A stretch of 64,000 nt of DNA from Tubiluchus corallicola (lineage: Eukaryota; Animalia; Priapulida), in the NCBI GenBank assembly GCA_030141605.1, contig JAQGDQ010000003.1:682001-746000 (forward strand), given 5' to 3'. Below, piece after piece: positions 12,401 to 39,400 of this stretch (positions within the stretch are counted from its first letter, which is position 1; each line of letters opens with the position of its first letter). The position numbers and the translations under genes were made by a program. The notes under the pieces were generated by a model that saw only the letters and a list, made by a program, of their open reading frames with translations, was not told the origin of the DNA and did no database searches.

Positions 12401-15400
12401 AGGGATACAACAACACAACTAGTAAAGCACGAGCTGACCAAATCCTTATCACATTATGATAGCATTCTTTAGTAGCGTTCTTACCAAACATTACATGATA
12501 ATCCTTTCAATATTCGGAATAGGAAACAACCACTGACAAATTGAGACTGGCAGTTGAGCAGGACTAGATGGGAAAACAGAATACGTCAATTTTGTGATTA
12601 TAATGCCGTTCAATTTCTTAACCATGCGGGGTTACGATGTCCCGAAACTAAATGTACTGACTATATTCAAGATATCAAATTGTATTTTATGTAATGATGG
12701 TTCTTACTTATCACTGGACATATTGTTTTATATGTTGTGTATGTGTTGAACTATAGGTTGTATAAGATGTTGAATTTCTCATTAAGATATATATATATAT
12801 ATATATATATAATAGTACAGAACAATTTAGTACATCAAAATATTGTTCAAGCAATACCAAATCTGTCGTACTCCCAAAATTGGTGCAGAGACCTAATATG
12901 TCTTACACAGCCTGCAATCTTGAAGGGTGTGATTGGAGCAGTGATCTGAAAACTCTGGGATTAATTTTTTTCGATTGAGTTGAATGGCTTACAAATTCAC
13001 TTAATTCATCCCTGCCAAACACAATAGAACTATTGTGAAAGACAGAGTGGTCTCTAAGATAATAAAAACGTGCTATTGATTAGTATTCAACAGGTAAGCT
13101 TTTCAGACATCGGTGAGATGTTTTGGGGGATCTTCAGTTCTTGAGTTCTTCGAGTAAGTGCTCCTTCATACCCCTTAAGAATGCAGGCTGTGTGAGACTT
13201 ATGAGGCTTGCCACACTAAATTTTGAAGGCATGGTAGATTGACATTTGGTTAAACAATATTTTGATGTAATGAACTAATCTGTAATTAATGTTACTCATT
13301 ATTTTTGTACCCCTAGCAAAACGTTACATACCACTCTTTTGTATGTAATTTGCCTTTATGAGTCAAAAATGTAGCTTTTAAAACATTTAGATTAAGATTA
13401 CATAAAATTTTGATATGGCCGTAAAAATACATGAATAACCAGTGATTTTTTGTATTACTCGTGTCGTTTTGCTTACTTAGAGTACATTTGTTAACAAACA
13501 TTTACTAAGAATTCATGTTACATTTACGCTTATTCCACTTAGTAGTAGAATCTATTGTTGTAGGCTATGGAAGTATCATCACTGTCTAGCAGTGTGGAAC
13601 GTGCAAGCCAGGATAGTTCTTCTATAACGGAGCGGTCTTCTACTGCCAGTCAAAACACAATTGAAGGCGTTAGTCAAATAGGTTTGTTTCACGCTTTACT
13701 CATGCGGTATTTGATGTTAACTCATTTAACGTGCATGCAGTTAATGACTTAGTGTGCAGGTTTATTTACTAAATCAACCATTTGGCTTTTAAAAAGTCTT
13801 GCCTGTTTAGAGGTTGATATACATGTTTGTTAAGCAACTTCATGTGCCATAGAGCAGCCACAGTCTGTAATAATGTTAAAAACATTTACTGGGTCATTAT
13901 TGCAAATACCTTGCCAGTTAATGCGGTAAGTCACACTTCTCTCGTATCGTTTTGGAATGTTCTGAACAACGACAATTAAAGCTGGCACATTGAAAGCAAA
14001 AATAGCCCTTCAGGAGCCACACAATTTGAAATGAGTAGCCTGCATCTGTGTGCATTTTGTGTAAAATATTTCTGTGCTGAATGGATTCATTCTTTGGCCT
14101 TTTTCTTGTCTGAATTTCGAATTAAATGCGTATTTTGAAATGTTTTCATACTTGGCATATTTCCTACAGATGAAACACAAGATATTTCAGGCGGAGTGGA
14201 AGCTCAGGAAAGCCTCTTATATTCTATTTGGGTTTCCTTTGTGGAAGTGTATAACGAGTATGTCTACGATTTGCTTGTGCCAATGTCTGCGGGACAGAGG
14301 AAGCGTCAAACACTGAAGCTAGCAGAAGACAATAGCGGAAATACTTACTTAAAAGGTTTGTTTGTTTTACTGTTGTGCAACTTTGTTTGTGCTTGTACAT
14401 GAATAGCAGCCATTTTTTATTGATAAAATCTTGCTATCAGTTGTGAAGATATGGCTATTTATTTTGAGAATGTTCAATTTTTTATTTTGGAGTCCTACTT
14501 ATAAAGCTTCTAATTGAGATTTTGGTTGTTTGTACTGGACTTACATTACTGTACTTTCATTGAATGGCTAATTGGAAGCCTTGACTCAAACATGATGTTT
14601 TTATTGTATGCTAGCACTTGAGTAGAAATTAACTGGACGTTTCAGCAAAAAATATTTATCCATAAACACAAAGCTTGAAGGTGCAATTAGCAACCGTAAG
14701 AAAAGGTTTCGATATTTCACAAATACAAAATAACGAAAAATGGAACACCACCAATGTTTTGTATTTCTGAGTTGTCTAAAGCCTTCCCTTATTAGTGCTA
14801 ATTGTATCATTTCAGTTTTATGTCGACTAAAATATTTTATTTTTCTGTTGCAGCTGACGTGAAGACAATGCTTAAACGTCCAAGTTGATTTATATTCGAG
14901 TGCTAGAATACAATTGTTAAAAGTGACATTTTAGTAGCTGTTGTAGCTGCTACATTTATCTTAAAGTTAAAATTTCCAAGTGAGATCTTTTCAGAAATTA
15001 TTATTTTTATTTATTGTCATACTAATGTAAAAAATACTAAAAGCTTTATATATGCATTTGTATTTTATTTGCCAGGTTTGAAGGAGATCAATGTAATGTC
15101 ATCAGATGAGGCTTACAAGGTTCTTGCTGTTGGTAGGAAGAACCTGCAGATGGCTACGTCTAGTCTCAACCACTGCTCTAGCCGAAGGTTGAATTTATTT
15201 CCATAATCTTTTAACTTTTTTGCTGTAATTCAAATTGTTTTATCACCTTGCAGTGAGTTCTGTACCTGTGCTGTTTCAGTTAAATATTTGTGGTCATACT
15301 GATGTGCTAATCATTAGTGTCAGATGCAGTGCACAACTCAATAATATACAGTTTAAAAATACCAACCTTAGTTTCTATGTCTGATGTTGTACTGAACACT

Positions 15401-18400
15401 TAATGCACATAACAAGCTGTTTCAAAATGGTAACGTTATTTTCTATAGCTGGTGTTGCACTGAACACTAAATGCACATTATAGGCTGTTTCAGAATGGTA
15501 ACATTATTTCCTATGGTTGCACTGAACACTTAATGCACATCATAAGCTGTTTTAAAATGATGACATTTGGGATTTTCAGTAATGAGGTACTTTGTAATCT
15601 TGTCCATATCAGGATTGCATGTTGCACTGAACGGTTAATGCACATATATACGTTTCAAACTAGTAATATTTTTTTATGGCTGACTTTGCTTAGAACACTC
15701 GTCGTACAACATATAGCACACAGATTTTTCACACAAAATTCATTGGCAGCTGATTGTGTTCTTCACACAGATTGGGCTCTGTGAAAAACTTTCTGTGCTT
15801 GAATAGCAATTTTTTTCATTTATATTGCCTATTTTAAGTTAAATGTTGACTGATTTTTGTTAATGTAAATGTTTGTGTTCATTTATTTGTTGTTTTGTTT
15901 TTTGTTGTTTATTCATTTGCTCATTTTTTCATTCATGAGATTATTCATTTTTTTACTCATTTGTTCACTTATTTATTATTTATTCAATCATCGTGATTTC
16001 ACATTATCTCTTATTCTTTTCTTTCTATACTGTTTTTTCTTTAATATTTTTCTTTCTTTCTTTCTTTATTCATAAAAGTCTAATACTCATTCATTTTTCT
16101 AAATTATATAGATAGATTCCAAGTAGCTGGGTGAATTTGAAGTGTCGTCGATGCAACTTGGCTTATGTGATGTGTGTGGTGTATTCAGTGTGATACCAAC
16201 CTTTTTCCTGCTAATATATTTTTACTGTGTCAGTTACAGTGTTTATTTATTGAATTTTTGAAATGGTTTGACCGATATTGTTTGAAATGTGGTGCTTGTG
16301 GTTACAAATGTGATCGTTGCTTAAATAAATGAAGTTCTGTTGTAATTTCAGCCACTGCATCTTTTCGGTGAAAATTCTGCGAGTTGTTAACAAGAATGAA
16401 CCTCACATGTGCCGCGTGAACAGGTAAGTAATACGCTCCATTCTTTTTGTCTGTCATTCAGATGTCACATTTAGGTTTGCCTTGTGCATATTCATATTAT
16501 ACATTTTTCTCACTATGGTGAGTGGGTATTATGATTATGCTACTTGCATTTGTTTTGGTATGTGCTTGTTGTTAAAGTGCTAGTTTGCTATTATAAATGT
16601 GACAGACTCAAATTTGAATAGTTGAAACTTTTTTGAATATCTGAATTTGGTTGTCATTGCGTTATTTTCTGATTACAGATTATCCTTTTGTGACTTGGCT
16701 GGCTCTGAACGAGCGGCTGTGACAATTAATAGCAATGATAGACTTCGGGAGGCTTGTAATATCAACACTTCTTTGATGACTCTTGCTAGATGCATCCATA
16801 CGCTGCGATACAACCAAAGTCACAAGTCAGCTTTTACGAAATTTTATTTTTTATTGCATTAAATGCTATGTCCTCATTCTAAAATATTGAGTTATATTAT
16901 TTTTCTGAAGAATGCTGAAGCAATTGCCATTAGTGCATTATTAACTTTGACTATTCAATTTCTGCCATTATGAGTTGTGACCATGTGTCATAGTATTCTA
17001 AGTTTTGCCTTGTGAAATAGTTAGTGTGGCATTGTCATCTTATGTTCATTGACAAAATTCAGGATTTTTTATGACGTATTTATGACGAATTGTGACAAAC
17101 AGTAGAAGTTTGGGTAACAAATTTACTGTTATCAGTGAGTTTACAACCACTGCTTTAAGGACGTTGAAGCAGCGACCTTTGATAATTCAAGTGATGGTAT
17201 AGAATTGACATTCGCAATGTTAGGAATTTCGGAGCATTTTGGTGCCAGTTTTTATTGTCACTTCAGCCAATAAAGTTCGCATGTGAATCAGCACACTTCT
17301 GCTTGTTTGTTTTGAGGTCGTTTTTAAATTTTTCAATATCATTTTTCTAGAGACAATCCTCGTGTTGTGCCATACCGTAACAGCAAGATTACAAGAATGT
17401 TTCAATCTTTCTTTTGTGGCAAAGGCAAGGCCTGCATGGTTGTAAATATTAGTCCTTGTGCATTGTACTTCGATGAGACGATACAAACATTAAAATTTTC
17501 AGCTATTGCAAAACAGGTGTGTGTACTTTCATTTACTCTATACGCATTATCTAACACTGAAATTAAATTTGAAAAAATTTTAAACTTTTCTGATACTGAT
17601 TGATTTAGCTTTTCAACAATGTTGGTTTTGTTTTTGTGTGTGTGTGCACTTTAGGTTACGGTTATTTCGGTGAGGGAGCCTGAACCAGTGATGCAGAAGA
17701 CCATTCATATTCCCAGCAAAGTGTCACTCATGTTGCAAGATTCTACTAGGGATCGTACAACAATGGAATGGGCAGGTGCAGAAACAATTGAAACTATTGT
17801 GGAAGAGGCGGATGCAGAAAATAATTCTGCAGAAGTTAAGGTAATATATGTTATTTTCTGGACAATCTAGATAGTAGTAAGATCTGAATTTGTCTCTGAC
17901 CTTGTTTCATACCAACTTAATTTCATTAGACTTTTATTTCATTTTCTTGTCACACAGTTTCTGCTTGGACTAAACTAATTTTTTGAAATTTTTTATATTT
18001 CTATTTCAGTAAGTATTTGCAAATTGCACTAAGTATTTATAAGTATGTTTTATAGTCATATCGTACATAAATTTCATTCACTCTGCTATTTCATTGCAAA
18101 ATTCTATTCTTTTTTCCTTGACATACCTCAAAGATTTTTCCTATTTTTTTTCTAAATCACTTTCCCAAAGCAGCATAACTCTGACAAGCTCTGCTTTTTG
18201 AATGTCCTGCAACAAATTTGTGCTTAGACGTTAGTGCGTAGCACACATCATTTCCAATTTCTTATAATAATTAATGATGCATCTGATGAGGTATTTGTTT
18301 CTTGCTTGTGTATTGTGTAGTATATTCTACTTAATTCTACTAGATCTAGTAATTTTATTAATAGATAAATAATATCGGAAATCAGCAAAGAACGATTTTT

Positions 18401-21400
18401 TTAGTATAACCTTTTTTCATTACAGTCATTTAAGAAAGTCAAGACACCTAGTAATAATTGTTTTATGTTTAGCGCTTGCAACTGCTGATCGAGGAGCTTA
18501 CACAAAACTTAATCGAAGAAAAACGCAAGGTTCTGACTATTGAATCAAAAGTACGAAAGGAGTTATGTGACGAATTTGCCGTTCAGCTTACCGAAATAGA
18601 AAATCAAACTACGGAGCGCATTTTAGAAGAACGAGAAATGGCTCAAGAATATGCTGATAGTCGGTGCGTTTTAAACTGTGGCTTATTCTGATGGCTTTAT
18701 GCATTAAGAGAGTGTATCAATTGCAAACAGCGCATATTGTCTAAAACAACAGTTTTCGTAGGGGCAAAGTAATGGAAAAAATAGCCCTACTCTAAAAGAA
18801 ATTGCAAAAAACGTTTTTTGGTGATTTCTTGTGGTATTTGGTCCAGACAGTAACATATCCAAATTAGGAGGAAATTTGGGCGAAAGTCTACCAGAATGCT
18901 GAAAAATGCTCATTTTGCTTCAGAAGCATGAAATTTTCCACAGTGTTCATTATGTGCTTAACGCATTACATAATACTGTACGTGCAATATTCATTTGTGA
19001 AACCATACCATTATTCATACATAACCTTGCTATGTTGTGACAGTACATGCATGTTAGTTGACAAAACAGGTAGACTTTGTTCATAATTCCCAAATGATAG
19101 GGCCCCTATGAGCTGACAAAAGCCATCTTGTCAGCCATCTCGAATGCTATCCCCATGTTGGATAATTTTTGAAAAAACGTTTTCTTGCAATTTTTCAAAG
19201 GTAAGTCAGCAAACTGACTCTACTATTTGTACAGACAGTATAGGTCTAATAAGTGCAATAGAATTGGGTAGGTTGGTAAAAAATCAATGTTTGATAATAA
19301 ACACTACTGCTAATTCCGGAACACAAAGTAAAAATTTTTTTTTGTTTATGTGCACATTTTAACTGCACTGTTAATGGCTAATGTTTAGCTTCAACGCATG
19401 CGCAAAGTAAACAAACTTTTGCCACTTTCTTCAGTTTTGTAGCTGTATGTATAAAAAGATGAACTCTTTCAAATTCAAAAACATTATTTTTAATACAGTA
19501 GTCGCCGCTTAATAGACTCACTTTGGGACCGACGTGTTTTGACCCAATTAACAGATGGGTGTAGTATTACTGCTATAGAAGTATGAGTCATCAGCTTACT
19601 ATGCACTGCAAAGGCTTTTAATCAATTGTAGAAACTAACTAATCCCTAAATTCCTTTGTGCAGTTAAAAATTAGAAGAAAAAAAATTGTAAACCACACTT
19701 TTAACACTGACTCCACTTCACAGTCTTTTCCTGTGCGTCGGCTCTTAGATGCTAGATTCTCATTTTGGCTTGCTGACTACTCAATTTCAGATCGTTTTTT
19801 CAATTTTCTGCCGAAAGTACTTTGGGAATTTTCAGCTGCGCTGCTGTAAACCTCTGCCCTTTCTTTGGAAGTTTATTATACTCCTCTAAAATTTTCAGTT
19901 TCTCCTTAACTGTTAGATCTTTATGCTTATGCTCCATTTTTCAAACTTCTCAACTCTGTGCCCTTATTTGCTGTATGATGTTTACTCTTGTAAGTCACAA
20001 GGAATACTGGCTGATTACTGTACCTGCCTTTTTGACTATAAATTCATTAAGCCTGAAAGGGTGATTTGCAACTAGCGCATCAAAAGGAGACCGCTAGGCA
20101 AGTGATTAAATGTTTAGCTTCCAGAAATTCTTTGGGTAACGAGGTTAATTGCAGTAGGCTAGCGAGTAACAGATTCAGAGCAAAATCGTTAGGCTACCGT
20201 ATTAACGCATGATAAACGTACTTGTTTACAAACAAAACGGTACTTAACATGATTGTTTCTACTCATATAATGCACAAAAGGGAAGTAAAGATAACATAAA
20301 AGTAGGAAAGGCTGTTTGGGCACATACAAATGTCTTATTTTAAGTACGTGAAGGAAAAATATTGAGTCAATTAAGCGAAGTTATTTGAGTCAATTACCGA
20401 TAGTTTTTATTTATATTTGAATAGAAGCGGCCCGTGCCAGGCGTTTTGAGTCAGTTAAGTGATTGAGTCTATTAAGCATCGACTACTGTACAGTTCATGC
20501 AAATGTGGCACATGTTTTGCACGACACCTTTCAAATATTTCTAATTTTCTATAGAATACGTTGATGGGGCTTAAACTTTTCTAACGTATTAAATGTGCTA
20601 TAGTTAATTTTTTTGTAAACCCGAGATACCTGAGATTATATTTTGTATTCAAAAATGTTTAGTAGATGTGTTGTTGTTGTATTAAAAAAGTACAAACCAC
20701 AATCTAAAAAAGTTATTTTCATGTACCTATTATAATGTCGCAATGCGTGTCAATTTTTGTACTTGAAGAATTGAGCTACTTCAGAAATCGTTAAAGAAGT
20801 CGCGCAAGAGAGCTAGAATTACGGAAGAAAGGGAAGACGAACTTATTTCGAAGGCTCTGTTGGATATGGAAACAGCAAGACTGAAGGTTTGTAACTCTTT
20901 TTAAATAATCTTCAACACTCTGGGTTATTTTCTAACTTATTTCTGGCCTTTCAATCTTCTTAAAATTGAGTTATCTGATAATTGACTGTTTTTCATATCA
21001 GTTCACTTACCAGTTTAATAGTATGAATTCTTATTGTGTTCTTGATAGAAGCATCAGATCTAGCTTTTTTTATCTCGTTTCTTCGTTTCTTGATTGTGCA
21101 CTTCAAGAACACTTATTGCGGCATATAGCAGTCCAGCTGCATGTTTGTTTAACCATAAAGTGCTTTGTTTGGTCCTGCTATGTAAAATTACTAAACAGGT
21201 AAAAATATATCACATGTGTAAAAAATTTTATGTGATGGTAGGAGAAAGAACACCAAGTGAGCGTTCTTCAGCAAAAGTTGGAGGAATCACAACGTGATTC
21301 GCAGCTGCAGATTGAGAAGCTGAAATCTGTGATAAAACAGTCAGGACTGGATCGAGCTAAAACAGTTGAGGAAAATTCCAACCTGCAATTTAGATTGTCA

Positions 21401-24400
21401 GATGCTAACACAACTATCAGCAAATTACAGCAAGAGCTCACTAGGTACGTTTCTGTAAGTTTGTTTAAGGTAAGTGAGGTATGCGTGCGTGTGTGTGAAT
21501 GTCAACCACATTTTAGCAGTGCAGCTGTTGACATATCAGCTTTTTCATAATGGAACAGTTACATATGCAGAGTTAAATTATACTTATGTTAGAGTAACGT
21601 TACTTTAATGTAAAGAATTAGTGGTGAGTATTGTTACAAATTTTAATAAATTTCTTACCTTTATCAAAGGCAGTGCTAAGAAACATTTTTTGCAGTGGAA
21701 ATAGTCTGTCGTCACAATTTCAGTGCGAGGAAAATCTGTATTGATTCCGAAAAGGTGGTTAGAGACTTAAAAAACTGAAATATGGAATCTTGGGAAACCT
21801 TTAATGTTTCCTTTACTTTGTTCATAGTGACGTGCTTCCTTTACTTTGTTCATAGTGGTGTTGAATGACTTTTGCTTGTATGTCGGTCCTGTTTTTTTAG
21901 CCTGTTTGACAAGACTAATAGCACGGAGGAGAATGAAAATGAAATGAAAGTGCTTTCATTGGCTGCTGAAAATGAGTCCCTCAAATCCTGCGTTGAAGCT
22001 TCAAACACTCGTCTCACATCGTTAGAGCAAGAACATACTGTGCAAATGGAAGAGATATCACAGAAACTACATGATGCTGAGGAAGAAATTAACAGATTGA
22101 AACAAAGCATAAGTAACCATGAACAACAGGCAACAGCTGAAAACAAAGACGACAAGGTACGTGGTACAAGAGGTACTTAATCAGAATTACCGTAAGGAAA
22201 ATATCAAAAAATAAATGCTATCTGGTGTGATATTTTTCTCTTTTTTTATACCAAATCATAATGGCTGTTGGTCGAACCAATAATGACTACTTAGGATGGC
22301 GAGCCTTGCGAATCAACTAAATTGCTGCCACACTGCCATTCAATGTGAAGCACAGTTGTAAGAAGTGGCTTCCATTTAGATGTTGCATTATTTTTGATAA
22401 TTCTGCATGCCTGGCTGTGACTTGGATGGATATTTATGTTGTTGGTATGCTTAGCCGGGAAGTCGAATGCACAGTGTGAATATTGTGTGACTTCAGCGGT
22501 CGCATTTCTAGTTATGGCACCTGCTTCACAAATTTTCAATCACATGCTCACAAATCTATGCCGTAATTTTTTTATTCGCAAGGTGCGTAAATATTGTAAA
22601 CATATCAGGGTCATAATTTTGTTATATTTTGCCAGAATCTTCGCCATGACTTTTTACGAGAATCCAGAGAATCAAGGTCAAAATTACACATTTCAAGTAT
22701 GATGAATTATAATTATCGAAACAGCAAAGATTAAATTTCAATTAAAGTGATTTATTAATCCGCTATCAGAACTGTCGCCTTTTTTAGAATGAGACGTAAC
22801 ATTTCCTGTTTCGGTCTCCAAGCTATTTAGAATTTTGTTAATTCTTCACTTTGTCAATGAATTCACAATCATCATTTCCTTCATCAAGAAATGTATCACA
22901 AGCATTTGAAACGAGAAGCGCTTTAAATTTATGCAAAATACAAGAAATTTTACTGATAATTTGACAAATTGTCTGCTTAATTTTACACCGTCTGCCAAAA
23001 GTTTGCGTTTTTGTTGGCTTGGCAACGAGCATAGATCCCTACAATTTTTACATACAACTTTGAATGAAAAACGCAGTGCGTCAAAGACACTTGTGAAGTA
23101 ACTAAGTAATATCGCCAGTGCAATGTGACAGCGTGCGTATGCGCTAGCGTAAGGTAGAGAGCAAAAATGTCAGATTAATGCCAGTATTTCTTTATTTTTT
23201 AACGTTCAAGTAAAACCTGCGCTAATCTAACCAGATTCGCAGAAAAAGGCAATAGCGCCAATGTTTACTCGAATGGATTCGCATCGAAATTCTGGCTCTG
23301 TACATTGTTACAAGTTTTGGTTCTGATTTGCATGTATGGATAAAGCAGCATCTTTTTTGAGAAGCTCGAGTATGTTATAATGTGTTTACTACTTGGGAGT
23401 GTAGTAACTTACCACTTTCGGATAATTACTCTGAAGCTTTTCGTGAATTTTTTTCAAGTATTTGTTGCATTTTATAGGGCGGGAATAGGCCTGATTCTTC
23501 CAATGACTTTTTACATTCTGAAATCATAAATGAACTGCAGCGGCAAATTCAAGATGCTAAATCAGTGCTTCTTGAAAAGGTAATGAAGCAGTAGATGATT
23601 AGATTGAGTTTAAATTTAATGATTAACTGTGTTCAAGAGTGGATATTTGCATTACAGTATGAAAAGTATGAATATTTTCAAATAAAAATATTTTATTGTC
23701 AAAATGTAATTAAACGTGAATTTTTAAGTGTCAATAATAAATTGCTGTTTTTGGCATCATGTAATAAATTTGTTTAGGACATAATTCAAGAATAACACTG
23801 TAGGGAATAGTTAAATTGATATAACTGGATGCATGTACAAATTGTTTTTTTAGGAAGCTGAAAATATGGAATTAAACGAAATGTTACAAGAAGCAGGAGA
23901 AACATTCCAAGAAAAAGATTCAAATATTAAGCAGCTGGAAAAGACCATTGAACAGCTGAAAACACTGCTTAACCAGCAAGAAGAACGACTAACAGCACAG
24001 GTATGCTAACACTTTAACCTGAAACAAATCATATACGTCTTGGTATCATGAATTTGGCAAATTATTTTTATAAAGATTTGCATACTTTTGAGCTCATTTA
24101 GGAAACTGCTAACTACACAACTGTTTAAGTCAACTGAAAAAAGATATTAAAGTGGCTAAAGTTAAAATGTTATTTTTATTTTACGAAGTGCAAAAATCAA
24201 TGTTGCCTAAAGTCATTGTGCTTAGCTAAAAACTGTATTTCAGATTTCCTTCAGTGTCATAATTATACTTTTCCGTACATAATTCTTGCAGTCTGTAATT
24301 TGAATATGGGGAAACTAACGTAATATGTTATTAAATAATTTTATTTTTAAATTTGCTGTATGAACTGTCACTTCTCTTTTAGGAAACAGCAATGAATGAG

Positions 24401-27400
24401 CAACAGATTCTCGAAGAGCAAACCAGCCAGGCTCTTCAAATGGCAAATAACAAGCTCAAGGATAAAGACGAAGACATCGTTCTACTTAGAACTAGATATG
24501 GTGTGCCCGAAGGTAGCTTAGTTAATACTGGCCTGAATTATGTTAATGAAGCAGTTGATAATATTCCTACTATAATTAAGAATAGAAATAATGTTTGTGG
24601 TAGTGGTTTTGATTCTCATGTAACAAATGAAGTAAGTTCCGTGCCAAAAATTGTCATATCTGCATATGATGACGACGACGAAGTGTTTCCTTGTCAAAGT
24701 CGTCACGAAATTGTTAAGTCTGTTGACATGCAATCACAACTTTCAGTCAATGCTAATAATCATTTACTGCTTAATGACACTTTGCCATTTGGTTCTTATG
24801 CTGAGTCTGCAGATAATTTTGGACTGCAAACAGAGAAGGAAGTTGTTGTCAATGTGTCAAATGAAAGAAAGATTGTTAAGGATAGGTGTATAGTAGCGCT
24901 GCCTGAAGCTAGTGTCTACTGCACTGTTGATCTTTCAATTAAAGAAAACTTGCACGAAGACACAGAAGAGAATTTACAAAAGCTTGGCAGTTCTGTTACT
25001 GATAAGCCGCCAGAAATAATAACGAACTCTTCCAACGATGGTAGTAGTGACCCTAATCATGACATCAATAGAAAAGAGAAAGCTAGTGAGGAACAAGATA
25101 TAACCGATTCCTTAGAATGTAATGCATGTGTGTTAAGTAATAATAGTTTAGATGTTTGTGACAACAGCATCCAGGAACAAGTAGATGAACAACTTGAACA
25201 ACAAGATTTAACAAATGCTGTGGAGTGCGACACTAATGCAATAAGCAGAGATAGCTTGGAAGTTGAAGATTCTCATGATTCAATTGGCGTATCCTTGCAA
25301 AAAGTGAACACAGAGTTTGGTTGTAATGGTGCCTACAGAGAAGTAATCAGTTGTTCTGTGAAATTAAGTAGACTTACTGATCTAAAAAATAATCTTAACC
25401 TTACTTCTGGTCATGGCAAAGTAAGTGGTGCTGAAATTGTGGCAACACTGGACACTAATCACGATGGTGAAGAAACGGACGAAATTAGTATGCCGGCGCA
25501 TGAAGATAATTATGATGACGAATCCGGCCATAAGCACGTGATTGGAGAAGAATTAAAAAAAGTGAACGATTCTGCTAAAGAAACACCAATGAAAATAGAA
25601 GCAGGAGAAAACAACGTTGGCAGTGATGTGCCTGTTAAGGTTTCTTCAGAAAGAATAGAAGTAGACTCGGATAATATGAACAAAAACCCTAATAAAGAAA
25701 CTGCAGAAAAATCTGAAGCAGAAGTTAATGAAAGAAACTGTGACATAACTGGTGGTATAAAGAGTAGGGAAGCAGACATGGTTGACAGAAACAAATACTC
25801 GGTTGAGGAAACTCCAACGAGTGAAAAAGCAGATATTGATGAGAGGAGTAAGAATTCCAGTAAAAAAAGCTCAGAGAATGTGGAAGCAAATGTGCATGAT
25901 ACGATTAAGGGCAATGTTAGACAAACTTCAGACAAAGTGGAATTAAATGTGGATGCAGAAGTAAACGATGCAAAAATTAAGAAAATGTGTTATGTGGAAA
26001 TAAGCCCATTGTTGAAGGGGGTTGATCCAATGCAAACAAACAAGTTAGGTACTAGTCCAGAATCTAGAATGTCTATGCCAAGTACGGAATTTAGAGAAAC
26101 TCTTATGTGTCGTGGCATCAAAAGAAGTAGAGATAAGAGTGCACCTATTATCAGTACAAAATCTCTTCTTGTGCGTTATGGTGATGAGAATGTGGATGAG
26201 CCTTCACCAAAGCTTCAAAAAACTTCATGTAGCCGATACAACCAAAAGTCTTCCAAGTCGACAACGAGTTTATCTGATAAAAGTCGTGTCATACGAAAAA
26301 TTTCTTTTGATAAGAAGCGAAGAACTAGAGCCAGCAAAATATCAGACGTAAAGATGATTAAAATTTTAAAACAGTTAGAATATGATGAGGGTGAATCGAC
26401 AACAGTAGGCACTAGCAGCTCAGTAAGTAAAACAAGTGATAAACGTTTATTTGACAATGTAGGTAAGGAAAATGCAATTCCGCAAGTGAATAAAAATCTA
26501 CAGGTTCACCATTTGCAGGTGGAAGACAAGGCATTAGTTCCTTCCAACAAGCTTTTACACACGCCCAAGAGTGCTTTTAGAGCTAGTCCTCAGACAAAAA
26601 TTGTGCGCGAGAATGAGAGGCCCCCTCCTTCGCCTTCTGCTGGACTTGCAGTAATGGAAGAAACTCTTCACTTGTCCTCGTCACCAAGAAAAGTAACCTT
26701 CAGGCACACTAAAGCAAGCAGGTTGAGAATATCAAAGTCTCCACTTTGTGGTGGTTCCAAGTCTCGTCTTTGTGTTTCACCTGGACAGCGGAAAAATGTC
26801 AAAATCTGTCAGCAGAAAAGATCATTGAGAAGAAAGTCATCACTAATGATTAAGAGAAGATACAATACAAGATCTCGAGCAAAGTGATTTTGTTCTGCAG
26901 TCCAGCCATAGTTGTCAGTGAGAGGTAGAATAGTTTGCGCGCTAGCTGGCCAACACACACATGTAAAGCAAAGCTTATATTGTATGAATTTGAATATATC
27001 GTATGTTATGCATTTTACCTAAGGCATTAGTTTTCATGCTTAAAACTAAAATTTTCACGCTAATGAATAATTGGCACTTTTTCGTTTGAATATTACTCAT
27101 ATGCTTTGACTAAACAAACTTGTCCTTTGGTAATTTCTTAAAGTATACTTAGACAATTTTCTTAAGAATACTGTTGCAGGATGTTTTAAGTTTAATCTGA
27201 CATATAAACTTATCATTATACTTACCTACACACTTTCTGGAACATCTTTCATATTATCCATGATTTTTTTCCTCTGAGACATGGCGTCACATTAATGTAC
27301 AAATAAATAAATAATTTCATTTTAATAGGAAGTGTACAAAAATATTTTTGCATTTATTAATGGTGATCGTAATGTGCAATGTTTCCTCATCTGTTATTGT

Positions 27401-30400
27401 ATGGATAGCGCTGTGTTTATCTTAACATGCAACGCCAGTTTGTGTAATTATAGTCGTTTAGAATCAATCATAGATTATCTTACTCAATTAATTTGTAGCT
27501 AAACTGAGGTGGCTTTACAAAAGCATTGAATAAGAGTATGAGTAAAATTTTTTGTTGTGTTTTTTAACTGCCACACATTGGTCATTTATCTGTGCATTAT
27601 CTATGATGACTTACATCATTGTGAAATGTTTTCCCTTTTTTGTGTATATTTTGTATTGAAAGTTTATATTACATTTCTGTAATTTTCTTAATAGACAAAT
27701 TATTTTTCATACAAGGCTATGCAAGAATGTACAGCATCATTTGATTTTGCTGAACACATGAGCATTTGAATCATGTTGCAGAAATTTATATTGTCTAAAT
27801 TTAATATTGTGCATTCAATGTTGCTGTATAATGTACATTTTAGAAAGTATATGTATGAAACAGCTTGCTTTGTTTACATGTACTATAGTTACTTGCATAG
27901 CTGAAGAATTAATAAAAAAACTATTTTTCTCGTTACTACCTCTTTACTTAATTCGGTTGCATATATGATTGATCATTTGACGTTAATTGTAGTTGATTTA
28001 TTATGTTATTATTTACTTCTACTCCTATCTCCAGGTGTCTTGCACAAACTCATTGTTCTGTATTAATGTGTTATACTTAATTTGAATTTACTAAAAATTT
28101 ATGGCTGAAACGTTCTTTGGTTTTGTAAAAAGAATTGTTATATGGTGCACTTGTCAGTTATAATAAACTCACGTTTACGTTTTAATTATTATAATATCAT
28201 AATTACTGTTGTACGTTGTATTTTACCTAAGCAGCATTTTCTTTTAAGTCTTCACCAGTGATTCGTGCATATGTGAAAATGAGAAAACTTGACTTACAAC
28301 GATGAGTAGGTTTTTTATTAACAAATTGTATGCATTGTCTTGAAAACATTTTTCTAACAAAGTCTCTAACAGTATTGAAAATGCTGACTAAGATAAAATA
28401 CTATACGATACTTGGCCTAGTTCTTTATCAGTTTTTCTCATTTCACAGATGCACTGGTCACAGATGATACAAACAAAACATACGATCAGCTCAACACCAC
28501 AAATGCCTTACTCGAAAAGCAAAATACCAGTATGGCTGAACAGCTTGAGGGTTTATCAAAGCAGCTGTGTCGTTACGTGGATGAAAATGAAGTGTTAGAA
28601 AAGAAACTGGAAACTGCACTGTCCAGGTAAGATCTTTTTTGAAGACTATGTATATAAATAAACTTAGCACTCAACATTAATTTGACAGTTAGATGCTCAG
28701 TTAGATGACAGTTAGATGCAACTTGTTCGTATCAGTATGGATCCTAAAAGTTCCACATTATCCCCTACTAGTGGAGTGACAGCACAGTTTTTTGTCCACA
28801 TTCTGTACCAGTGGAGCAAACAGCACTGTTTCTTTTGTCCACGTAATTCTGTACCAGTGAAGCAACAACAGTTTTTTCCAAGGAATTTAAGCTGCAATAA
28901 TATTTCATACTTTGTGTTTCCTTGAGTGATTTTTATTATGTTAGAAGTCGGCAAAAAAGAGATGAAAATGCTGCTTGATTGTTGATATATGATGCTCAAG
29001 CAGAATTTGAAAAAAGCAAGCAATTTAGTATAGTACTGATAACTGAAATTTTTTATATCATTGAGTTTAAATTAATGTTGAATCAGATAAGGCAAACACA
29101 TTTAGCCAGCTGCATTTGTTTGTTATGCAGATGTAGAGAGCTAGAGGAACAAAAAGTTGAGATGGAGAACAAGGAAACTTGTATGTCTAAAATTGCTGAT
29201 TGTGAAAAGAATGTGGCAGTGCAGGAAGCTGTATCTACACTCGAGTCCGAAAAGCATAATCTGCTTCTTCACATTAGTGAACTACAAAACGAACTTGCTG
29301 CAGGAAAAGATGAAATAGAGACTCTAAATAGTTTGTTAACTGAATCCCAAAGTTCAGCATACGATACTAACAGGCAGTTAACAGCGCTCATGAGTCAGCT
29401 AGAAAAGATGAAAGAGCAGGCTATGGAACAACTTAAATCTGTAGAAGTGATGAAGGAAGAAAATGAGAAGCTGATTAATGCAAATAAAACTCGAGAGGAC
29501 GAGTACCAAATGCAGGCAGAGTCACTGAGAAATGAAATTGAAGAGTTGAGAAATCAGCTTGCACAAGGAGGAAATGAATCGAGTCAGGTGATGTTCGAAG
29601 AAGTGCATATGTTGAAATGCCAGGTTTGTGATTTGCAGTCTGCATGCACAATGCAGTCGGACATGATTTCAAAAGCAAATTCCAAAACAGAGTGTATACT
29701 CAAAGAGCGTGATGAAATTAAACTGAAATTCACAGAGTTACTGGCAGAAAATGATAACTTGTTGCAAAGGACAAAACTAATATCCGGTGAAACGCAAGAA
29801 CTAAGTGATAATCTAAACGCTGTTACTAAAGAGCGTGAGCAGCTGTTAAAGGAAAAGAGTGAATTACTGAGAGAGAATAATTTGCTGACAGTTACTATTG
29901 CTTCATTGAAAACAGAGGGGAGATCTTTGTTGTGCGATAAGGAAAATGAATTAGTTTCTCTTCGGGAGCAGGTTCACATGCATGAAAAAGAGCTGGAATC
30001 AGCTAAAGAGCTGTGCGAAAATTACAAGGCGAAAGCTGACATGATAACAAAAGAAATGGAGTGCCAGAAAAATGCGTGGATAGAAAGTGAGGAAAAAGTG
30101 CAGGAAAAAGCAAAAGATATAGTCATTAAGTTAGCAAATGAAAGAAAAGCACACACTGAATCTAAAACTGAACTGGAGAATGTTATGGATTTGGTTTCAA
30201 AAAAAGATGGCATCATTAAAGAACTTGAAGCTAGTTTGAGCAATTTGAATCAAGACTTGGCAATGAAGGTGGAGAATGTTGAAGTTACTCGAAAGGAAAT
30301 TGAAGAACTTCGCTCAAAGCTGAATGCGATGGCGCGACAGAAAGAAGATGAAATTTCTTGTGTGCATGAAAAACTGGAGTCATCACAAGCTGCAGAAAAA

Positions 30401-33400
30401 ATGCTGACTGAAAAATGTGTTGAATGTCAAAAACAAGTGGCTAATCTAGAGAACAAAATAGAAGAGTTCCGTCACTCAGAAAAGCAGTTTAACGTAATTG
30501 AAGAACAAGATAAAATTAAACTTGGCACTTTGGAAAAAGAATTGGATGCATTGAAACACACAAATGAAAATTTAGTTGAGAGGGATGAACAAAATGAAAA
30601 GAAATGCTTGACATTACAAATTGAGATAAACCAGCTAAATAACACTATAGACAAACTGAAGGAAACAGAAAAGCAAAATGAAAGTCACAGTGCTGAACTT
30701 CAGAAGGAATTGATTTTGGTGAGACAAATTGAGCAGAGAGCTCAACAACTTAATGATGATAAATGTTTGGCTCTGCAAAATGAATTAGATGAGTTCAAGC
30801 AGCAAGTACAGATTCTCAGAGAAACAGATGAACAAAGTAAAACTCGTATTGCAGAACTGGAGAACATATTGGAAGCATCGAAACATGCCGCAGAAAATGT
30901 AATTGCTAAAGATCAAGAGAACATTAAAAAGTGTTCAACTTTGGAAGTAGAACTTAGTAACCTGAAGCAAAAACTTGCAAGCCTCAAAGAACAAGATGAG
31001 CAGAGCAAAAAGCAAGTAGTAGAGTTACAAAATGAGCTTTTTGTATTAAAGGAAAGAGAAAAAAGCTTCATACTGGAAGGAGAACAAAGTAAAGAAAAAA
31101 TATCTGAATTGACTAGACAGTTGGAAGAACTGAAGCAAAATGAACAAAATCTGGTTGAGTCAGCTGAGCAAGCTAAAAACCACCTCAGGGAAGTCAACGA
31201 GAAAAACTTAGAACTTAGTAACCTGAAGCAAAAACTTGCAAACCTCGAAGAACAAGATGAGCAGAGCAAAAAGCAAATAGTCAAATTACAAAATGAGCTT
31301 TGTGTATTAAAGGAAAGAGAAAAAAGCTTCATACTGGAAGGAGAACAAAGTAAAGAAAAAATATCTGAATTGACTAGACGGTTGGAAGAACTGGAGCAAA
31401 ATGAACAAAGCCTGTTTGAGTCAACTGAGCAAGCTAAAAAGCAGCTCAGAGAAGCCAACGAGAAAAACGAAGCCGAACTTGGTTTTTTGCAAAAGCAGCT
31501 GGAAACTTTGAAATATGCAAATGATGAACTGATAGAAAAGAAAAGTGACGTGTCGAAACTAAACGAAAGGTTAAAACTGGTGAGTATAGCATCTCTTCAG
31601 TCAAACCTCTTTATACCGCCTACTTTGGGTCTAGAAAAAAGTTGGCATTATAGCGAGTTTGGCATTATAAAGGGGGCGTTATAAATTCTTTATAATAACC
31701 TTTATAAAATCTCAGACTTTTAAAGGTCAGACTTTTAGTTACTACCAAAATTACCGAAATTATGAATAAAAAATTTCATCTCTCTTTTTTTTTTAAATTT
31801 GTAACACTATATATGATAATCGTATATGTTCATTTTGTTGCCAAAAATTTTGGAATATCTTATATTGAATTCTGTTCCTGTTGTTTTAAAATTTGCCAGG
31901 AAGAGGAGAAGATATCAGAACTAAAACAAACAGTTCGAGATTTGGAAGAGGAGGTAAAGCGTAAGGACATCAAAATCAATAACAAAGTGATGGCTATTGC
32001 CGACCTCAAAAATGAGAATGAGTCAAAAACAATCAAACGAGATCTTTTAACAAAAGGTAAGTGTTTTTGTCTTTTTTATTCTATTTTTTTATTGATTATA
32101 TTCTTACATTTGTGCATGTGTTTCCAAAGTTCCAACTGACTATTAATGCCTGTGGTTCTGTGATCAGTGCCGTGAAATCATTTTCTTAAAGTATTCATGT
32201 CTATCATTTATGGTGATTTCAGATTTGTAAATTTGTAAAGCCAGGTTTTGACGGGCACACGACCGTTTCACAAAGACCAAATTTTTTTTAAAGTCTAACA
32301 GCCACCAAAAAATTTATGCACCATGTTTTGTCGTCCAGGTCGCAACTCATTTGTGCAAAGTTCCAAATAATTGTGCCGCTTTCTTGAGACTTTAGGGTTT
32401 TTTCTTGGGGACTGTGTGACATCCTCGCGAGTAAGTTGGATCATTTCACTACCATTTCAGCAGACGAAATTTTTGTAGGAAAAAATGCCAGACAATCGAG
32501 GTTCTCCAAAATGTCACAAAATGTTGAAAAATAGTCGCAAAGCCATCTCAACATTTTCAAAGGCATCTCAAAATGCTGACCAATGTTTTTGTGTACTCCA
32601 AAATTGTTGACGAATGTCACGAATAATTGAGAACATTGTGCGCATGTTGGCGCATCTTTAGACAACTTTGCAACATTTTGGAGAGGTTTTGACGAGGTTG
32701 GGGAACTTTTGGAGCATGACTATCGGATAGTTGCTGAAACCCCATGAAATCCTAGCTTAAATCAAACATGGTAAAAACTGCTTTGTTCATGACATGTGTT
32801 CTGCATTATGGGAGTTCCTTAATTTAGCTCTAGTCCTCAACTCTGAAGGCTCCCATTTATCGAGTTGCTAAATGCTAACCTGCTTACCAGGTTTCTGTTA
32901 CGTAATTGTATTAATAAAAGTGGTTTCATCTACTAATATGTGTAGACAGGTTAACATGTTTAAGTCATTTAAATTGCCTAATTGTACCTTGATTGATTAT
33001 ATCATGTGTAGATAATTTATTAATGCTTAACTCCCATTAATAAAGATGAATATTCAGCACGTTAATATTATATATATTATTACTTAACTCGTAGTCCCTG
33101 CCAAAGAGCCCTAACTCAAGCTGACAGAATACGTAGCATTTGATAATGAATAAATCACTAATGTATGACATTTGTATGAGTAACATAGCAAACATGAACA
33201 CAGAGAGAAAATAAATTTCTGCTGGCTTCCATTGTTGCCGGGTTTTCATATAACTTATTCATATTTGTCTTAACTATTTTCTTCTTTCTATAAAGATGAT
33301 AATCCACTAAAAGCAACTGTTATGAATTGCCGATAAATAGAATTGTACTAGTTTTTGAAATAATTAATTTTATGCGGGTTAATCTATATGACATCGATTC

Positions 33401-36400
33401 AGAAGGCATTTTTGTCATTTGTTGCATCTTTAGATGTTGCAGAACAAGCAGAATTGATCAGCCAGTTAAAAATGTTGGCCACAGAACAAGAAAGCACAAT
33501 GGAGATTCAGGATAAAGCTTTGAAGGATAAAGAAAATGAAGTTACAATTTTGCAGAATGGTATGTTCTAGTTATGTAATTAATGAAATACTTTTCAAACT
33601 GTGGTTTTAACAGGTTTTCTGAACTTTGAAGAGTTAGTTCGTCAACATCGCATAACGACAATTCTGTTGCAGTTCTATCTGCTGAAACAGTGAATTAAGG
33701 AAATGTGTGCTTGTGTCTGTGTGGTGTAGTTTGACAAAAGGCAATGCTGCAAGCCAATGTACTTGTCTGTTTGAGGAAACTGGAATTTATTGAACTTAAC
33801 AAGAAATTTTCATCAGAAGTTTTCTTATCTTAAGCTAAACTTTTCTTTAAGAATCTAGTCTATTCTGTGCCTTCAAATGTAAAAATTGTTTTCAGACTGA
33901 GATGGTGATGATGTCTACATATGACTTGAAGGGATGAATGCAAACATTCTGGCATTCTTGTGTTAAAATCCCAAACTTGGTTAATTTGGCAAAGCCTAGT
34001 GTAACAAAATTTAAAATATAAATACGTTTAGTTAATGGCTCAAATTAACCGAGAGTTCGTCATGAAACGTTAGGCTAAAATAAGAAAATTAGAAATCTAA
34101 ATAAGTTTAAAAAGTTACAATGAAGGTGCAAATGTAAAATAACTATAGATTCTGTAATTTCTAGTGCAAGATTTTACAGAATGCAAGAAATTAATTGATA
34201 TACATAGTCTAACTGAGTTTCAGGTTGTCGTGTTATCCAGGTTATCCTGTTGTCCAGGTTATATACACTGTCCATATATTGTTGCTTTTACACTTCAGCA
34301 ATGTGACTACACACGTAATTCCAACTTCATATACTGATGATACGGTACACTGCTGAAGTTCAAATTATGGCGATAATTGCATTAATGCAGACTGTAAAGC
34401 ATAGAATAAAATATTAAAAGCCTTGCATCAACAAATAAATTTGAAAACCATCTCTAGTTTTGTCGATTATTGTTATTGTTGTTGTTGTTGTCGTCGTTGT
34501 CGTCATCGTCGTCATCATCATCATCATCATCATCATTATTATTATCATTGTCATCATAATTAATTATTGTCCTAGACATGAAGAAGCTGGCCGACGATTA
34601 CGAACAGAAACTCAGAAAAATTACTGAAGAAAAGAAGTCTAGCAGCCAGCTTGCATCTGCTCTTGAGGAGAGCAACAAAGAATTGAAGGAGCTGGAAAGA
34701 TTATATGCAGGTATATGTAATACCAAATCATGGGTCATTGTCTCGTTTTGCAGTCTTTTTAATCCTCGTTTTACAGTAACGTAGTTTCTGTTGGGTTCAT
34801 ACATGTACTAACAACTTGCTGAAAACTTGATGTCTCATATTTTTATAGACCCGACGTAAAATAACGTGTATTTTGTGTATCAATCAATATGTTTGTTATG
34901 TGTTAGCTGGTCTTTTTATTTATACTATTCTTGCAGAAAGTCAGAAGCAATTGGAGACTTTAAAGTTGGAGCAGGACAGTCATATGGAAGCCAAAACATC
35001 CTCTCTACAAGAACAAGTTGCTAGCAAACAGAAAGAAATTGACAGTCTCAGTCGCGAACTCCGTATAAAAGAAAGACAAAAAGAAAAACTTTGCGAGGAG
35101 AACAAAGAAAAAGATGTTAAAATGCAGGTATGGGATGTTTACTTTGATTTCTCTTTTATTTTTATAAATCTGGTCTTGGTGACTGAAGTCGAGTATTGAG
35201 AGGCATGAGTGTATTTCTATAACTGTTGTTTCTTCTTATTGTGACTACAAGATTATAAATAATGCATGTGCTGTTCGCTGTTGACCAACAAGCCTAGCAG
35301 TTTACCAGTGCTGCTAGTGAGTGTTTCTAGACAGTCTGAGCCCGAAGGTTCCCCTGAATGTGTGTAGGGATCAATTGTATGATAAACTTATTTTAACTAT
35401 GCAGTATTTATAATATCAAGTTGTGTTCTCAGTAGTCAATGGCTGATTTTAATAGCAGCTTCAAGAAACATGACAATGCTTCGGTGATCAACGTATTCGT
35501 TTTGAAAGATCATTAACGGTTGACAGGAATGAACAATGATTTCATAATTTACAAAATTATTCACACTTTATTTAGTTTTATGATGTTTCGTATTTTGAGT
35601 ATTCTTAATCAAGTGCTTACAGCAGATTTAACTGTGTCAAAAAATAAGTAAAAGAAATACAATTTTGATGCTTATATTTGCGTTCCAGTTTGCGGCTTTG
35701 CCGAATTGTTATTTATACAATTCTTCATCAAGGCGTTTAGTCGCACTGATTATGAAATTCCATTGTCTCTCTACTTGGTTTACCCATGTATACTGAGCTG
35801 TGATGCTACATGACAACTAAAAACCTACTAAACATTAATGTTTATTTCAGAAATGGAAAGAAGAAAGAAATGAGATTGTTGGTAAACTGGAAACAGTGTT
35901 GAAGGCACACTCGGCAGACTTGCGAACGAAGACAGCAAAAATTCAAGAACTAGAAGATTTGCTCAACAGTGGCGACCAGGTTAATATCCTTGCCACATTT
36001 TAAGTTATAATTTGCTTGTAGATGCTCTTGCTTCACTACATATCTCAACAGCTCCTGATTTTACACCAAAGAAGAAATCTACTGAAGTTATAATATTGAG
36101 GCAATAGTTGTCCTAAACATATATTTGTATATGTATGCAAGGAAACAGGACAGTGAACTGTACCGGGTCAGTGCTTTTGTTCTGAAAAGACTACTTTTAT
36201 GACTGTTTGTTTGTTTGTTTTTTTTACATTCAGTTTTGGGTTTTTGTTTTCGTTAGTTTGCGGCCTTTGCTATTTTATTGTTTTTGTTTACCTTATTTTA
36301 TTTTATTTTTATTTTTTTGAAATTATTTTACATGAAATAATTATTTAAAGGAAACAGTATAATTTTTCAGATCTTGCTCATTTTTAAGTACTGTTTAAAA

Positions 36401-39400
36401 ATTTAAATTTTAAATGTACTGCTGTGCTCATGTATGATATCTCACACGTGTGCACTGAATCATATCTGAACTGAGCGGTACAGTGCCTGCTTATTGTGCA
36501 ACACGTTTCCAAGATGCAGACGCTAGTATCCATCTAACTAGTGAATAAGGAAATGGATGTAACAACGAAGAACTTGCCGCGCTAATGCGAAATTAATTTT
36601 CTGAGGTAACAATTCTTTTATGTAAGTCATTCATGAAAAAAACAAAAAAAAACAATTTTATACATTAGATATTTTGAGCAAAGTTTTAGATTGGGTCCTG
36701 TTTTCCTTTTAACATGTAATGTTTTATTCCCATATGTTTAATTCCTTTTTTTAAAAATGAATAAAACTGCTTTTTTAATTTATTACATTATCACCTGAGA
36801 TTACTGACTGTAGTCACATGATTAATTTATATTTATGGTTAGGTTAACGTTCTAAAGCAGCAAATAAGTGAGAGTGAAGTGACTATAGCAAATTTGAAAA
36901 GCAAGTCGCAGCTTCAACTTGAGAAAATAGACCATTTGGAAAAGCAGTTGTCGGTGAAGGAGAAAGCCGTTGCATCAAGTCACACTCCTATGACTAGGAG
37001 TCGAAAAACTCGCCATGCCTTGCAAGTTGTGGAAGATGTAGGTGATGTGGACTCTAAAAAAGAGGTTTGTGCTATATTGTGCTAAAGATGGTTCTTAACT
37101 TCTTATTTTATTTCTCAGCAATTAGCCAAAATCTGTCTCAGTAAAAGCAAATGTACAATAAACATACTGTTTTGTCAGATCAGGAAGAAATACGATGATC
37201 ATCTCCCAAACAAATTCTAACTTTCAGTTTTGGAAATGTGAGTGGCCCATTCATTGCATATAGAGACAAAGAACTCGAGCTTGAATAATGAACTTGGCTG
37301 TTTTTGTAGTCCGGACTTGTTGTGATGTCAGCCTTCTACTAACATGAACAACTATTGAAATGACTCGTATTAATACACTCGAGAATATGTCACAATAAAT
37401 TTTCACTTTTTTAGGATGCCACACTTAGTCAGCAGTTGATGGAGAAAGGCAAAGTGGTTGAAAATCTGAAAATTGAATCTCAGCATCAAGCTGAGACAAT
37501 AGCTCGTTTAGAAGCAGAGCTGTCAGAAAAAGCTAATGCACTTGCAGCGTCTTGTACACCAGTAACAAGGGGACGGAGAACGAGACATGCTCTGAAACTT
37601 GCAGAAGATGATGATAGTGTTGATGTGTTACGGAAAGAGGTAGCAATACTTTTTAACGTATGACATTTCGTAATTCAATTCAATTCAATTCAAATTTATT
37701 TATTACCTCATACAATTCAATAGGGTGTTTTGCTTAAATATGGTAGTTAGCCATAGAAAATAAACAGAAAGAGGTCGGGTGGTGAAAAACCTTCAGGTCA
37801 CCTGACATCCACCCCTTAGTACTCAATTAATAGTGTTGATGAAATTTAAACAATGATGTTAGTGACATTTGGAGAGGAACATATTGGTTTTTTTTATGAA
37901 AAGATACATTTGGTCATAAAAAATTCAATTGTTTGAGCATTAGTATTATGGTGTAGTATTAAAAATAAATTGTAAGAACTATCCATTGTACGAGCAAAAC
38001 AATGGTAGCAAAGTTGTCAATAAGTAACAAAACATTAAGGAATTCGGCAAAGCAATATATAAAGAAATGTTAAAAAATACTCAGAAATTTTGCACAAGCC
38101 AGTAAAAAAACTCAGCAGAGCAATAAAGCAACGAAACAAAAAAGTAAACTTCATTCTAATGTACAAAGTTAATCTAATGTATTACCCAGGTATGCTTTAA
38201 AGATCTGTATTAGCAGCAAACTACAAAGGTGGATAACATATAATTGAATGCTTAGCAGGGACAATTCTTAAGTACCATAACATACTTTCAAAACAAGGGA
38301 AATAGGCTCCAGGATAAAATGCCAATAATCAGTCCAGGCAAGGTAAGCAGCCAAATTCAGTAATCACTATATACACTATATAGTGAATGAAACCACCCAG
38401 AAAAAGTATTGAACCCTGCAGTCATCCATCCATTTGTTGACCAGCTTTGTTATTGCTTAACTTGGTTATGTTTGACCATCATCATACAAACTTGTTTTGT
38501 GTGGTTTACAAGGAAATGCTATCATTGCTAAATTTTGTTTATTTTTATTTTAGCTGGAGAAGGAAAGAGAAAAGGTTGCTACATTAAGGAAACAAGTCAG
38601 TGCTAGCTTACGCAATGAAAATGACTTGAGAGGGGCAAATTCGCAGTTGCAGAGTCAAGTTATGCAACTTGAGGTCAGTGCTCAGTTAGATTAAAGTGCT
38701 TTAAATTATATAGTTATATATGTATTAATATTAAAATGATTAAAAGTTTCACCTCAGTTTTAATCTTGTTTAATCTATGGCAGTCTTTGTTAATTAGGCC
38801 TAATAACAATAGACATTTGAAATGAGCTGTAAAATGTGAATTTTCTGTAGATAATTCACTAGTTGTGATTAAGATCTTGGCTTAATAAGAAAGATGCATG
38901 TATGCAGTATCCATGCGTAAAATGATTTCTCATAACAGTATATGTTAGAATTTATTGAGTAAATGCAAGTTGCAAATTTACAAGCTTTGTAAGAACAAAT
39001 TACTGTCTGTGGTTTGTTCTAACAAATATACGTGTTGCACTGATGTTTTCAGAGTAAAAAACAGTGTTTGTGATGCCCGTTTCGTGGCCTTTTTTCTATT
39101 AGGTTTGTGTAAACCTTAGGGTTAAAACTTTTCAAAGATTTATTGTCGCTGGGGCATAAGTAACTACTTAGTACTGGCTGGCAGTTATACATGCTTTTTT
39201 AGCATCTCGTTTTTTCAAGTTCTGTAACAAATTTTCACTTTTCCACACAAATATCTTGAGCGAATCAGCATTTGAAAGTTAAGCCTGCATATTTAAGTTG
39301 GCATTGTTTTAAAATGAGATTTTTGGGATAATAACATGTTAAATTAGATTTAAACTATTGGTTTTGTTTAGAGCGTTGATATTATTTTTTGTATTTATAA

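Follow-up and report, generated by a model that had tools for sequence, protein, structure and literature searches.

Can one kinesin-6 gene encode two motors that share a head and differ in the tail? The question is raised by a KIF20-subfamily gene in a stretch of 64,000 nucleotides from the priapulid Tubiluchus corallicola (GenBank assembly GCA_030141605.1, contig JAQGDQ010000003.1, positions 682,001 to 746,000 of the forward strand), hereafter the window, in whose numbering all positions are given. KIF20A, a drug target, belongs to the kinesin-6 motors, which run cytokinesis. An earlier reading, made from the letters alone (the sequence-only reading), had proposed that exon 17 of this gene is either spliced into a long coiled-coil stalk or read through into a different tail within the following intron. 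The present analysis makes it quite probable that exon 17 is such a composite terminal exon. Use of the splice donor at 24513, joined to 28449, would yield a motor of 2429 amino acids (aa) with a long coiled-coil stalk; skipping of this donor, with intronic polyadenylation and cleavage after 26887, would yield a motor of 1739 aa with a basic tail. Coordinates are collected in Table 1.

A long open frame runs on from exon 17 of a KIF20 gene

The gene is a kinesin-6 of the KIF20 subfamily. Its 31-exon model has GT-AG boundaries at all introns, contains no internal stops and places 905 aa upstream of exon 17. All three of the motor exons scanned match the Kinesin family of Pfam (PF00225), the top PDB match of the motor is KIF20A (E = 1e-20, ten orders of magnitude ahead of the next kinesin at 4e-10), and the animal matches to the motor exon that carry a family name are all KIF20. 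The whole motor can be aligned with its homologs, whose Pfam motor span of about 440 aa compares with 327 profile positions, a difference that does not directly locate a loop-6 insertion or long neck. In a tree of 40 sequences (first 720 aa; eight KIF20A and eight KIF20B, with KIF23, arthropod, nematode, tunicate and lamprey sequences left out) the window protein groups with that of Priapulus (support 100/100) within the protostomes (100/98). Since Priapulus is the sole ecdysozoan in the tree, this grouping means only that it is the nearest sampled sequence.

The sequence-only reading had held that the frame stays open from exon 17 to a TGA at 26887 for longer than chance allows, and that the encoded tail is neither coiled coil nor transposon-like. 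These points are borne out. Starting at the first base of exon 17, behind a normal acceptor, 834 codons on the plus strand (24383-26887) are free of stops; the longest open run in any of the six frames was 183 codons in 500 shuffles of 24383-28448, and the probability that the 794 codons downstream of the donors stay open is about 1e-27. The amplitude of heptad periodicity is 2.4 in the tail versus 6.5 in the long stalk. The tail is acidic to about codon 500, and its last 120 aa are strongly basic, with six S/T-P sites.

Such an open reading frame (ORF) could have nothing to do with the kinesin and be due to chance, to a transposon or to a gene of its own nested in the intron, and the whole ORF is indeed without a database match: whole-tail searches found no homolog among 6680 candidates of 1461-4170 aa and no match among 1.84 billion representatives, and an Atlas search with the whole tail and with its last 120 aa gave no usable match. 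However, the ORF continues the frame of exon 17 with no intervening stop, and it has the DNA depth of a single-copy sequence, 8.6-39 in four bins versus 2400-5300 at a nearby repeat. These values come from X1, a DNA run in which introns are covered (X2 mapped only to repeats). Long direct or terminal repeats were looked for at the ORF and none were found, and a Pfam scan of the tail gave no family at the cut-off, transposon families included, so the ORF has none of the three marks of a transposable element (multiple copies, terminal repeats, transposon domains). The end of the tail also matches the short kinesin tails of other phyla, as described below, and we regard an origin unrelated to the kinesin as very improbable.

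Four other genera share one split point between short and long KIF20 forms

Homologs were collected with a motor exon (98 matches) and with an amphioxus stalk (68 matches) as queries, and 30 clusters were examined, within length limits and by comparison of annotated proteins rather than introns. In four of the five genera compared, short and long proteins part at one point, 67-74 aa past the EAGE motif. The pairs measure 976 and 2133 aa in the amphioxus Branchiostoma belcheri (short form Bbelb_295240), 1009 and 2334 aa in Mytilus (short form Mytilus edulis XP_071151333.1), 952-956 and 2302-2307 aa in oysters (Logan proteins of the Magallana cluster), and 994 and 2558 aa in the clam Ruditapes (short form XP_060582779.1; 99% identical). 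Of three comparisons of oyster short with long forms, two give 97-98% identity over about 800 aa and the third, whose alignment entered the tail, gives 92%. For want of an anchor, one Mytilus pair was left unscored.

In amphioxus, mussel, oyster and the window, the residue after the split is the one expected from a phase-1 G|GT junction, namely Gly in the short forms and Asp or Glu in the long forms; in the clam it is Gly in both. In the alignment, donor 24513 of the window falls at the split points of amphioxus, mussel and clam; Priapulus has an Asp there, and the oyster is 3 aa shorter. A GenBank model of Mytilus edulis contains the short tail followed by long-form exons, and therefore both lie in one locus in that species. 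Among the 15 listed members of the oyster cluster (40 in all), seven are short forms of 952-956 aa on Logan contigs of 3254-3558 nt. These contigs exceed the ORF by just 395-687 nt, so they lack introns and are most likely cDNA. The short form is missing from the RefSeq isoform sets examined for oyster and amphioxus, which amounts to an annotation gap. From these comparisons the split-point architecture appears old and not peculiar to this gene copy; what is peculiar to the window is the length of the tail, about 790 aa versus 115-158 aa.

A short and a long protein of the coral Montipora were considered as a further case and rejected: they part 31 aa after EAGE, are 82% identical and are read as paralogs. 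In Montipora foliosa the short and long KIF20 lie on one contig under neighbouring accessions, which may reflect an independent split by tandem duplication. The RefSeq model of Tubulanus has an S/P-rich insert of about 200 aa (residues ~915-1115) directly past the conserved junction, after which the stalk resumes; this may be a tail-internal isoform.

The end of the tail is conserved in bivalve short forms

ORF residues 719-832 (about 115 aa) align with the mussel short tail with a score of 91, which none of 1000 global and none of 1000 block shuffles reaches; against the oyster tail the score is 83, reached by no global shuffle and one block shuffle in 1000 each. A profile of the two bivalve tails gives the window tail 18.0 bits, compared with 8.0 for the best of 2000 block shuffles, and the window tail outscores every protein compared except the bivalve short forms themselves. 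Among the proteins compared, only ten bivalve records have HTKxSxLR besides the window tail; [KR]YNxR within the last 20 aa occurs in 10 of 286, all of them short forms. Both motifs were chosen after they had been seen; among 200,000 shuffles each, HTKxSxLR arose in 8 (last 120 aa shuffled) and KYNLR in 36 (amphioxus tail shuffled). By alignment, profile and motif, the end of the window tail is homologous to the bivalve short tails. The predicted short form of the window is thus like the other short forms in its split point (mussel, oyster, amphioxus and clam), in HTKxSxLR (mussel and oyster) and in YNxR (mussel, oyster and amphioxus), and unlike them in that their tails have no long acidic part.

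As far as these searches reach, conservation is confined to the basic end, and the acidic part of about 670 aa is without a homolog found. It is likely a fast-evolving spacer that was added in this lineage. Two RVxF-type motifs lie in the tail, RKISF at 26294-26308 (ORF residue 638) and RKVTF at 26687-26701 (residue 769); they are possible candidates for PP1 docking sites with an Aurora-type Ser/Thr, and have no counterpart in the bivalve tails as aligned.

Splice donors and the route through 26463

Donors were scored with a matrix built from the 29 other donors of the gene, leave-one-out scores being used for comparison. Joined to 28449, donors 24501, 24513 and 26463 give model proteins of 2425, 2429 and 3079 aa, and the unspliced frame gives 1739 aa; all are free of stops. 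The sequence-only reading had named 24501 and 24513 as weak phase-1 donors leading to a long form of about 2425 aa. Their phase and their fit to 28449 stand, and the 2425-aa model from 24501 is stop-free. However, 24513 is not especially weak, as 9 of the 29 other donors score below its 7.5 bits, and it is 24513 and not 24501 that is in register with the homologs, which makes it the likely donor of a 2429-aa long form.

The proposal of one gene with a short and a long motor gains from the split point in four other genera and from the homology of the tail end, and it had overlooked a third route. Were the ORF to serve only as a large exon within the gene, joined from 26463 to 28449, about 650 acidic residues would enter the stalk, and there would be no terminal short form. 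The donor at 26463 is the best GT in the ORF and in phase 1; the insert of Tubulanus returns to the stalk, and the Mytilus model mentioned above splices out of the tail. Against this, decoy GTs of at least 8.5 bits also occur in exon 19 (one) and in introns (three in 3.3 kb), and the 140 codons past 26463 stay open (P about 2e-4). All of the conserved tail sequence lies in them, downstream of 26463, where translation reaches it only in a terminal exon, and a terminal exon is therefore favoured over an internal one. We think it quite improbable that the ORF serves solely as an internal exon; a 3079-aa form made beside the other two is less improbable, and still rather unlikely.

A segment of the putative 3' untranslated region (UTR), 27214-27230, is complementary at 15 of 17 positions to 26458-26474 around this donor, with a duplex of about -16 kcal/mol. 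By a post hoc test, a comparable complementary partner exists for only 2% of the region. Such pairing could mask donor 26463 in the pre-mRNA.

Variation in the tail and points against a short form

Several observations weigh against a short form that is made and maintained. The differences listed in X1 within the tail are 23 nonsynonymous and 5 synonymous, about the neutral share; one X1 contig has a 1-bp loss at 26866 that would replace the terminal YNTRSR; and synonymous codon use does not separate the tail frame from its other frames. All 16 members of the RefSeq amphioxus clusters are long, the short amphioxus protein being a single GenBank prediction, and the clusters examined hold no such short form from echinoderms, Glandiceps, Owenia, Lineus or Priapulus, within the limits of length and annotation stated above. 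The two members of the mussel pair, 96% identical, come from different Mytilus species. The short models of mussel and clam lie on small scaffolds (35 and 306 kb) and could be truncated predictions; conservation in oyster rescues the mussel model, not that of the clam, whose short tail matches nothing and may be predictor read-through. The amphioxus, clam and coral tails give no significant overall alignment with the window tail (their scores are matched or exceeded by 296-1000 of 1000 shuffles): amphioxus has only the terminal KYNLR in common with it, clam and coral nothing significant. The AATAAA hexamers to which the sequence-only reading had pointed are present, with a fourth at 28162; as the other introns of the gene hold 1.6 per kb, the four in 1.56 kb here are no evidence on their own. 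The T-rich tract that it had described is likewise seen (T fraction 0.40), and is no sign of a UTR end, since it persists past 27930 (0.42).

The tail could accordingly be a relic, decaying and drifting, of an ancestral short form that this species uses seldom or not at all. Besides the neutral-looking share of nonsynonymous changes and the long part without a homolog, this would fit the X1 contig with the 1-bp loss, in which five amino-acid changes cluster in 26790-26866; that contig represents either a divergent allele or a decaying copy. However, the skew does not single out the tail, because it recurs in the adjacent true exons 16 and 18 (seven nonsynonymous to two synonymous differences listed). 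There is no stop among the 28 substitutions listed, a weak point as about 1.3 would be expected at a random share of 4.5%; the 1-bp loss is the only indel among the differences listed and lies 7 codons from the end; HTKASRLR is intact; and a frame of 794 codons would not long remain open without selection. On balance we judge a relic rather improbable, and return to exon 17 as a probable composite terminal exon.

A probable switch between two tails

In a composite terminal exon, an internal 5' splice site competes with a downstream poly(A) site, and read-through gives a new C-terminus. Exon 17 has an internal in-frame 5' splice site and a read-through frame that continues to its own stop and carries conserved sequence. 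The mechanism is well known; its use to make short and long forms of KIF20 was not found described in the open-licence literature, and open-licence PMC and bioRxiv main texts yielded no description of invertebrate KIF20 isoforms or of this switch. The proposed switch resembles that between the secreted and membrane forms of IgM, also a case of a composite exon with intronic polyadenylation, and differs from it in that the gene is that of a mitotic motor and the read-through adds 2.4 kb of coding sequence. The switch would consist of U1 at the donor in competition with intronic 3'-end cleavage. Judging from gene structure and homology, the animal probably makes both RNAs, and the switch would predate the protostome/deuterostome split. 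For the suggestion that the two forms might be divided between oocyte and soma, nothing was found in support.

What might the short tail do? Passages of PMC5940148 report that the C-terminal regions of MKLP2 and Subito bind microtubules, lipids or Mad2 under phospho-regulation, binding of all three being reported for the C-terminal region of KIF20A/MKLP2, which is also reported as an Aurora B target. By analogy, the basic end, rich in phospho-sites, would act as a second binding site under mitotic kinase control, making a second microtubule or membrane contact under CDK1 and Aurora B. The region of human MKLP2 that binds the passenger complex is placed at residues 636-705 in PMC7337490, and a corresponding site would by position fall in the part common to both forms. 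The earlier description of the two forms as having entirely different cargo-binding tails is thus too strong.

Vertebrate KIF20A and KIF20B

In the tree, 16 vertebrate sequences (KIF20A and KIF20B) lie on one side of a branch with support of 100/99, by which KIF20A and KIF20B are co-orthologous to the single invertebrate gene. Profiles of LxEAGE and of the long-form C-terminal motif, both built from invertebrates, divide the two. The C-terminal motif is found in 43 of 49 KIF20B (at least 15 bits) and in none of 40 KIF20A; LxEAGE has a strong match in 13 of the 40 KIF20A and in none of the 49 KIF20B, and the KIF20A proteins in which it scores at least 8 bits (24 of 40) end 45-71 aa past the match. 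The long form of the window is like KIF20B/MPP1 in its long coiled-coil stalk and its C-terminal motif, and unlike it in the strong LxEAGE match. The predicted short form is like KIF20A/MKLP2, the best PDB match, which is also a short protein with a basic tail and without the long C-terminal motif; it differs in being an isoform with a tail of about 790 aa, whereas KIF20A is a separate gene, and one whose tail has no sequence match to the profile of invertebrate short tails.

In passages of two papers (PMC5909929, PMC9581516), KIF20B is described as vertebrate-specific, and in one of them its stalk as having evolved in vertebrates. According to the tree the KIF20B gene is vertebrate-specific; its architecture is present from cnidarians to amphioxus, judging by long forms with the C-terminal motif in cnidarians, molluscs, an annelid, a priapulid, echinoderms and amphioxus.

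These distributions suggest that the vertebrate duplication partitioned the short and long isoforms into KIF20A and KIF20B. The partition is unproven, and the stalk may have been lost by other routes, because KIF20A tails do not match the profile of invertebrate short tails (best 2.0 bits), a further point on the contrary side. Isoform separation, by which ancestral isoforms end up in different paralogs after gene duplication, is described in passages of PMC4494069; neither KIF20 nor kinesin appears in the main text of this paper or of PMC4417111, a second one on the subject, and the likeness here is one of architecture, not of tail sequence. As a tentative proposal, to which we give slightly less than even weight, the bilaterian ancestor made short and long kinesin-6 proteins from one KIF20 gene by intronic polyadenylation at this exon, and the duplication fixed both as KIF20A and KIF20B, the KIF20B stalk being ancestral; HTKxSxLR and the terminal YNxR would be unrecognised conserved binding motifs, which here end a 670-residue acidic spacer. 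If invertebrates make both architectures from one gene, the division of labour between A and B is older than the duplication and becomes testable, one isoform at a time, in embryos of oyster, mussel or amphioxus, with the conserved tail motifs as concrete sites to mutate.

Features of the locus

Table 1. Features of the KIF20 gene in the window, including the putative short-form 3' end
Feature	Position	Strand	Description and basis
KIF20-subfamily kinesin-6 gene	9166..44567	+	31 coding exons, ATG to long-form stop; GT-AG model, Pfam, PDB, tree
Exon 16	23854..24000	+	LxEAGE coiled-coil segment common to both forms; profile match 36 bits; also in invertebrate homologs and teleost KIF20A
Shared 5' part of composite exon 17	24383..24512	+	43 codons and 1 nt; in register with amphioxus, mussel and clam junctions
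Weaker in-frame phase-1 donor, ATG|GTGTGC	24501..24502	+	5.2 bits; four codons before conserved position
Phase-1 donor, AAG|GTAGCT	24513..24514	+	7.5 bits; likely long-form donor; positional homolog of split point elsewhere
Predicted short-form read-through coding tail	24513..26887	+	1739 aa in all; stop TGA 26885-26887
Mostly acidic non-coiled-coil tail part, ~670 aa	24513..26536	+	Composition; homolog searches blank; likely lineage-specific spacer
Strong phase-1 GT, TAG|GTAAGG	26463..26464	+	8.6 bits; top of 161 GT sites in ORF; candidate donor to 28449
Basic S/T-P-rich tail end	26537..26878	+	Homologous to mussel and oyster short tails by local alignment and profile versus shuffles
HTKASRLR motif	26705..26728	+	HTKxSxLR in mussel and oyster
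Terminal YNTRSR	26861..26878	+	KYNLR in amphioxus, mussel and oyster short forms
Putative short-form 3' UTR	26888..27930	+	Candidate AATAAA 27302, 27306 and 27911, each with upstream TGTA; sequence only
Exon 18	28449..28626	+	Phase-1 acceptor; first exon exclusive to long form
Last two long-form exons	43342..44567	+	KKRKLxKTDISAP-type C-terminal motif as in vertebrate KIF20B; profile match 59 bits

A neighbouring FAM53-family gene (~50100-53126, minus strand; Pfam E = 3e-15) is convergent with the kinesin gene; human KIF20A presumably also lies near a member of this family, FAM53C. The 2449-bp stalk exon contains a 261-bp tandem duplication (~30960-31480), at which an X1 contig joins 31041 to 31303, a one-copy allele or an assembly collapse. 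High-copy repeats lie in introns at ~19490-20450, 23000-23300 and 31600-31690, with a summed X1 depth of up to about 5300.

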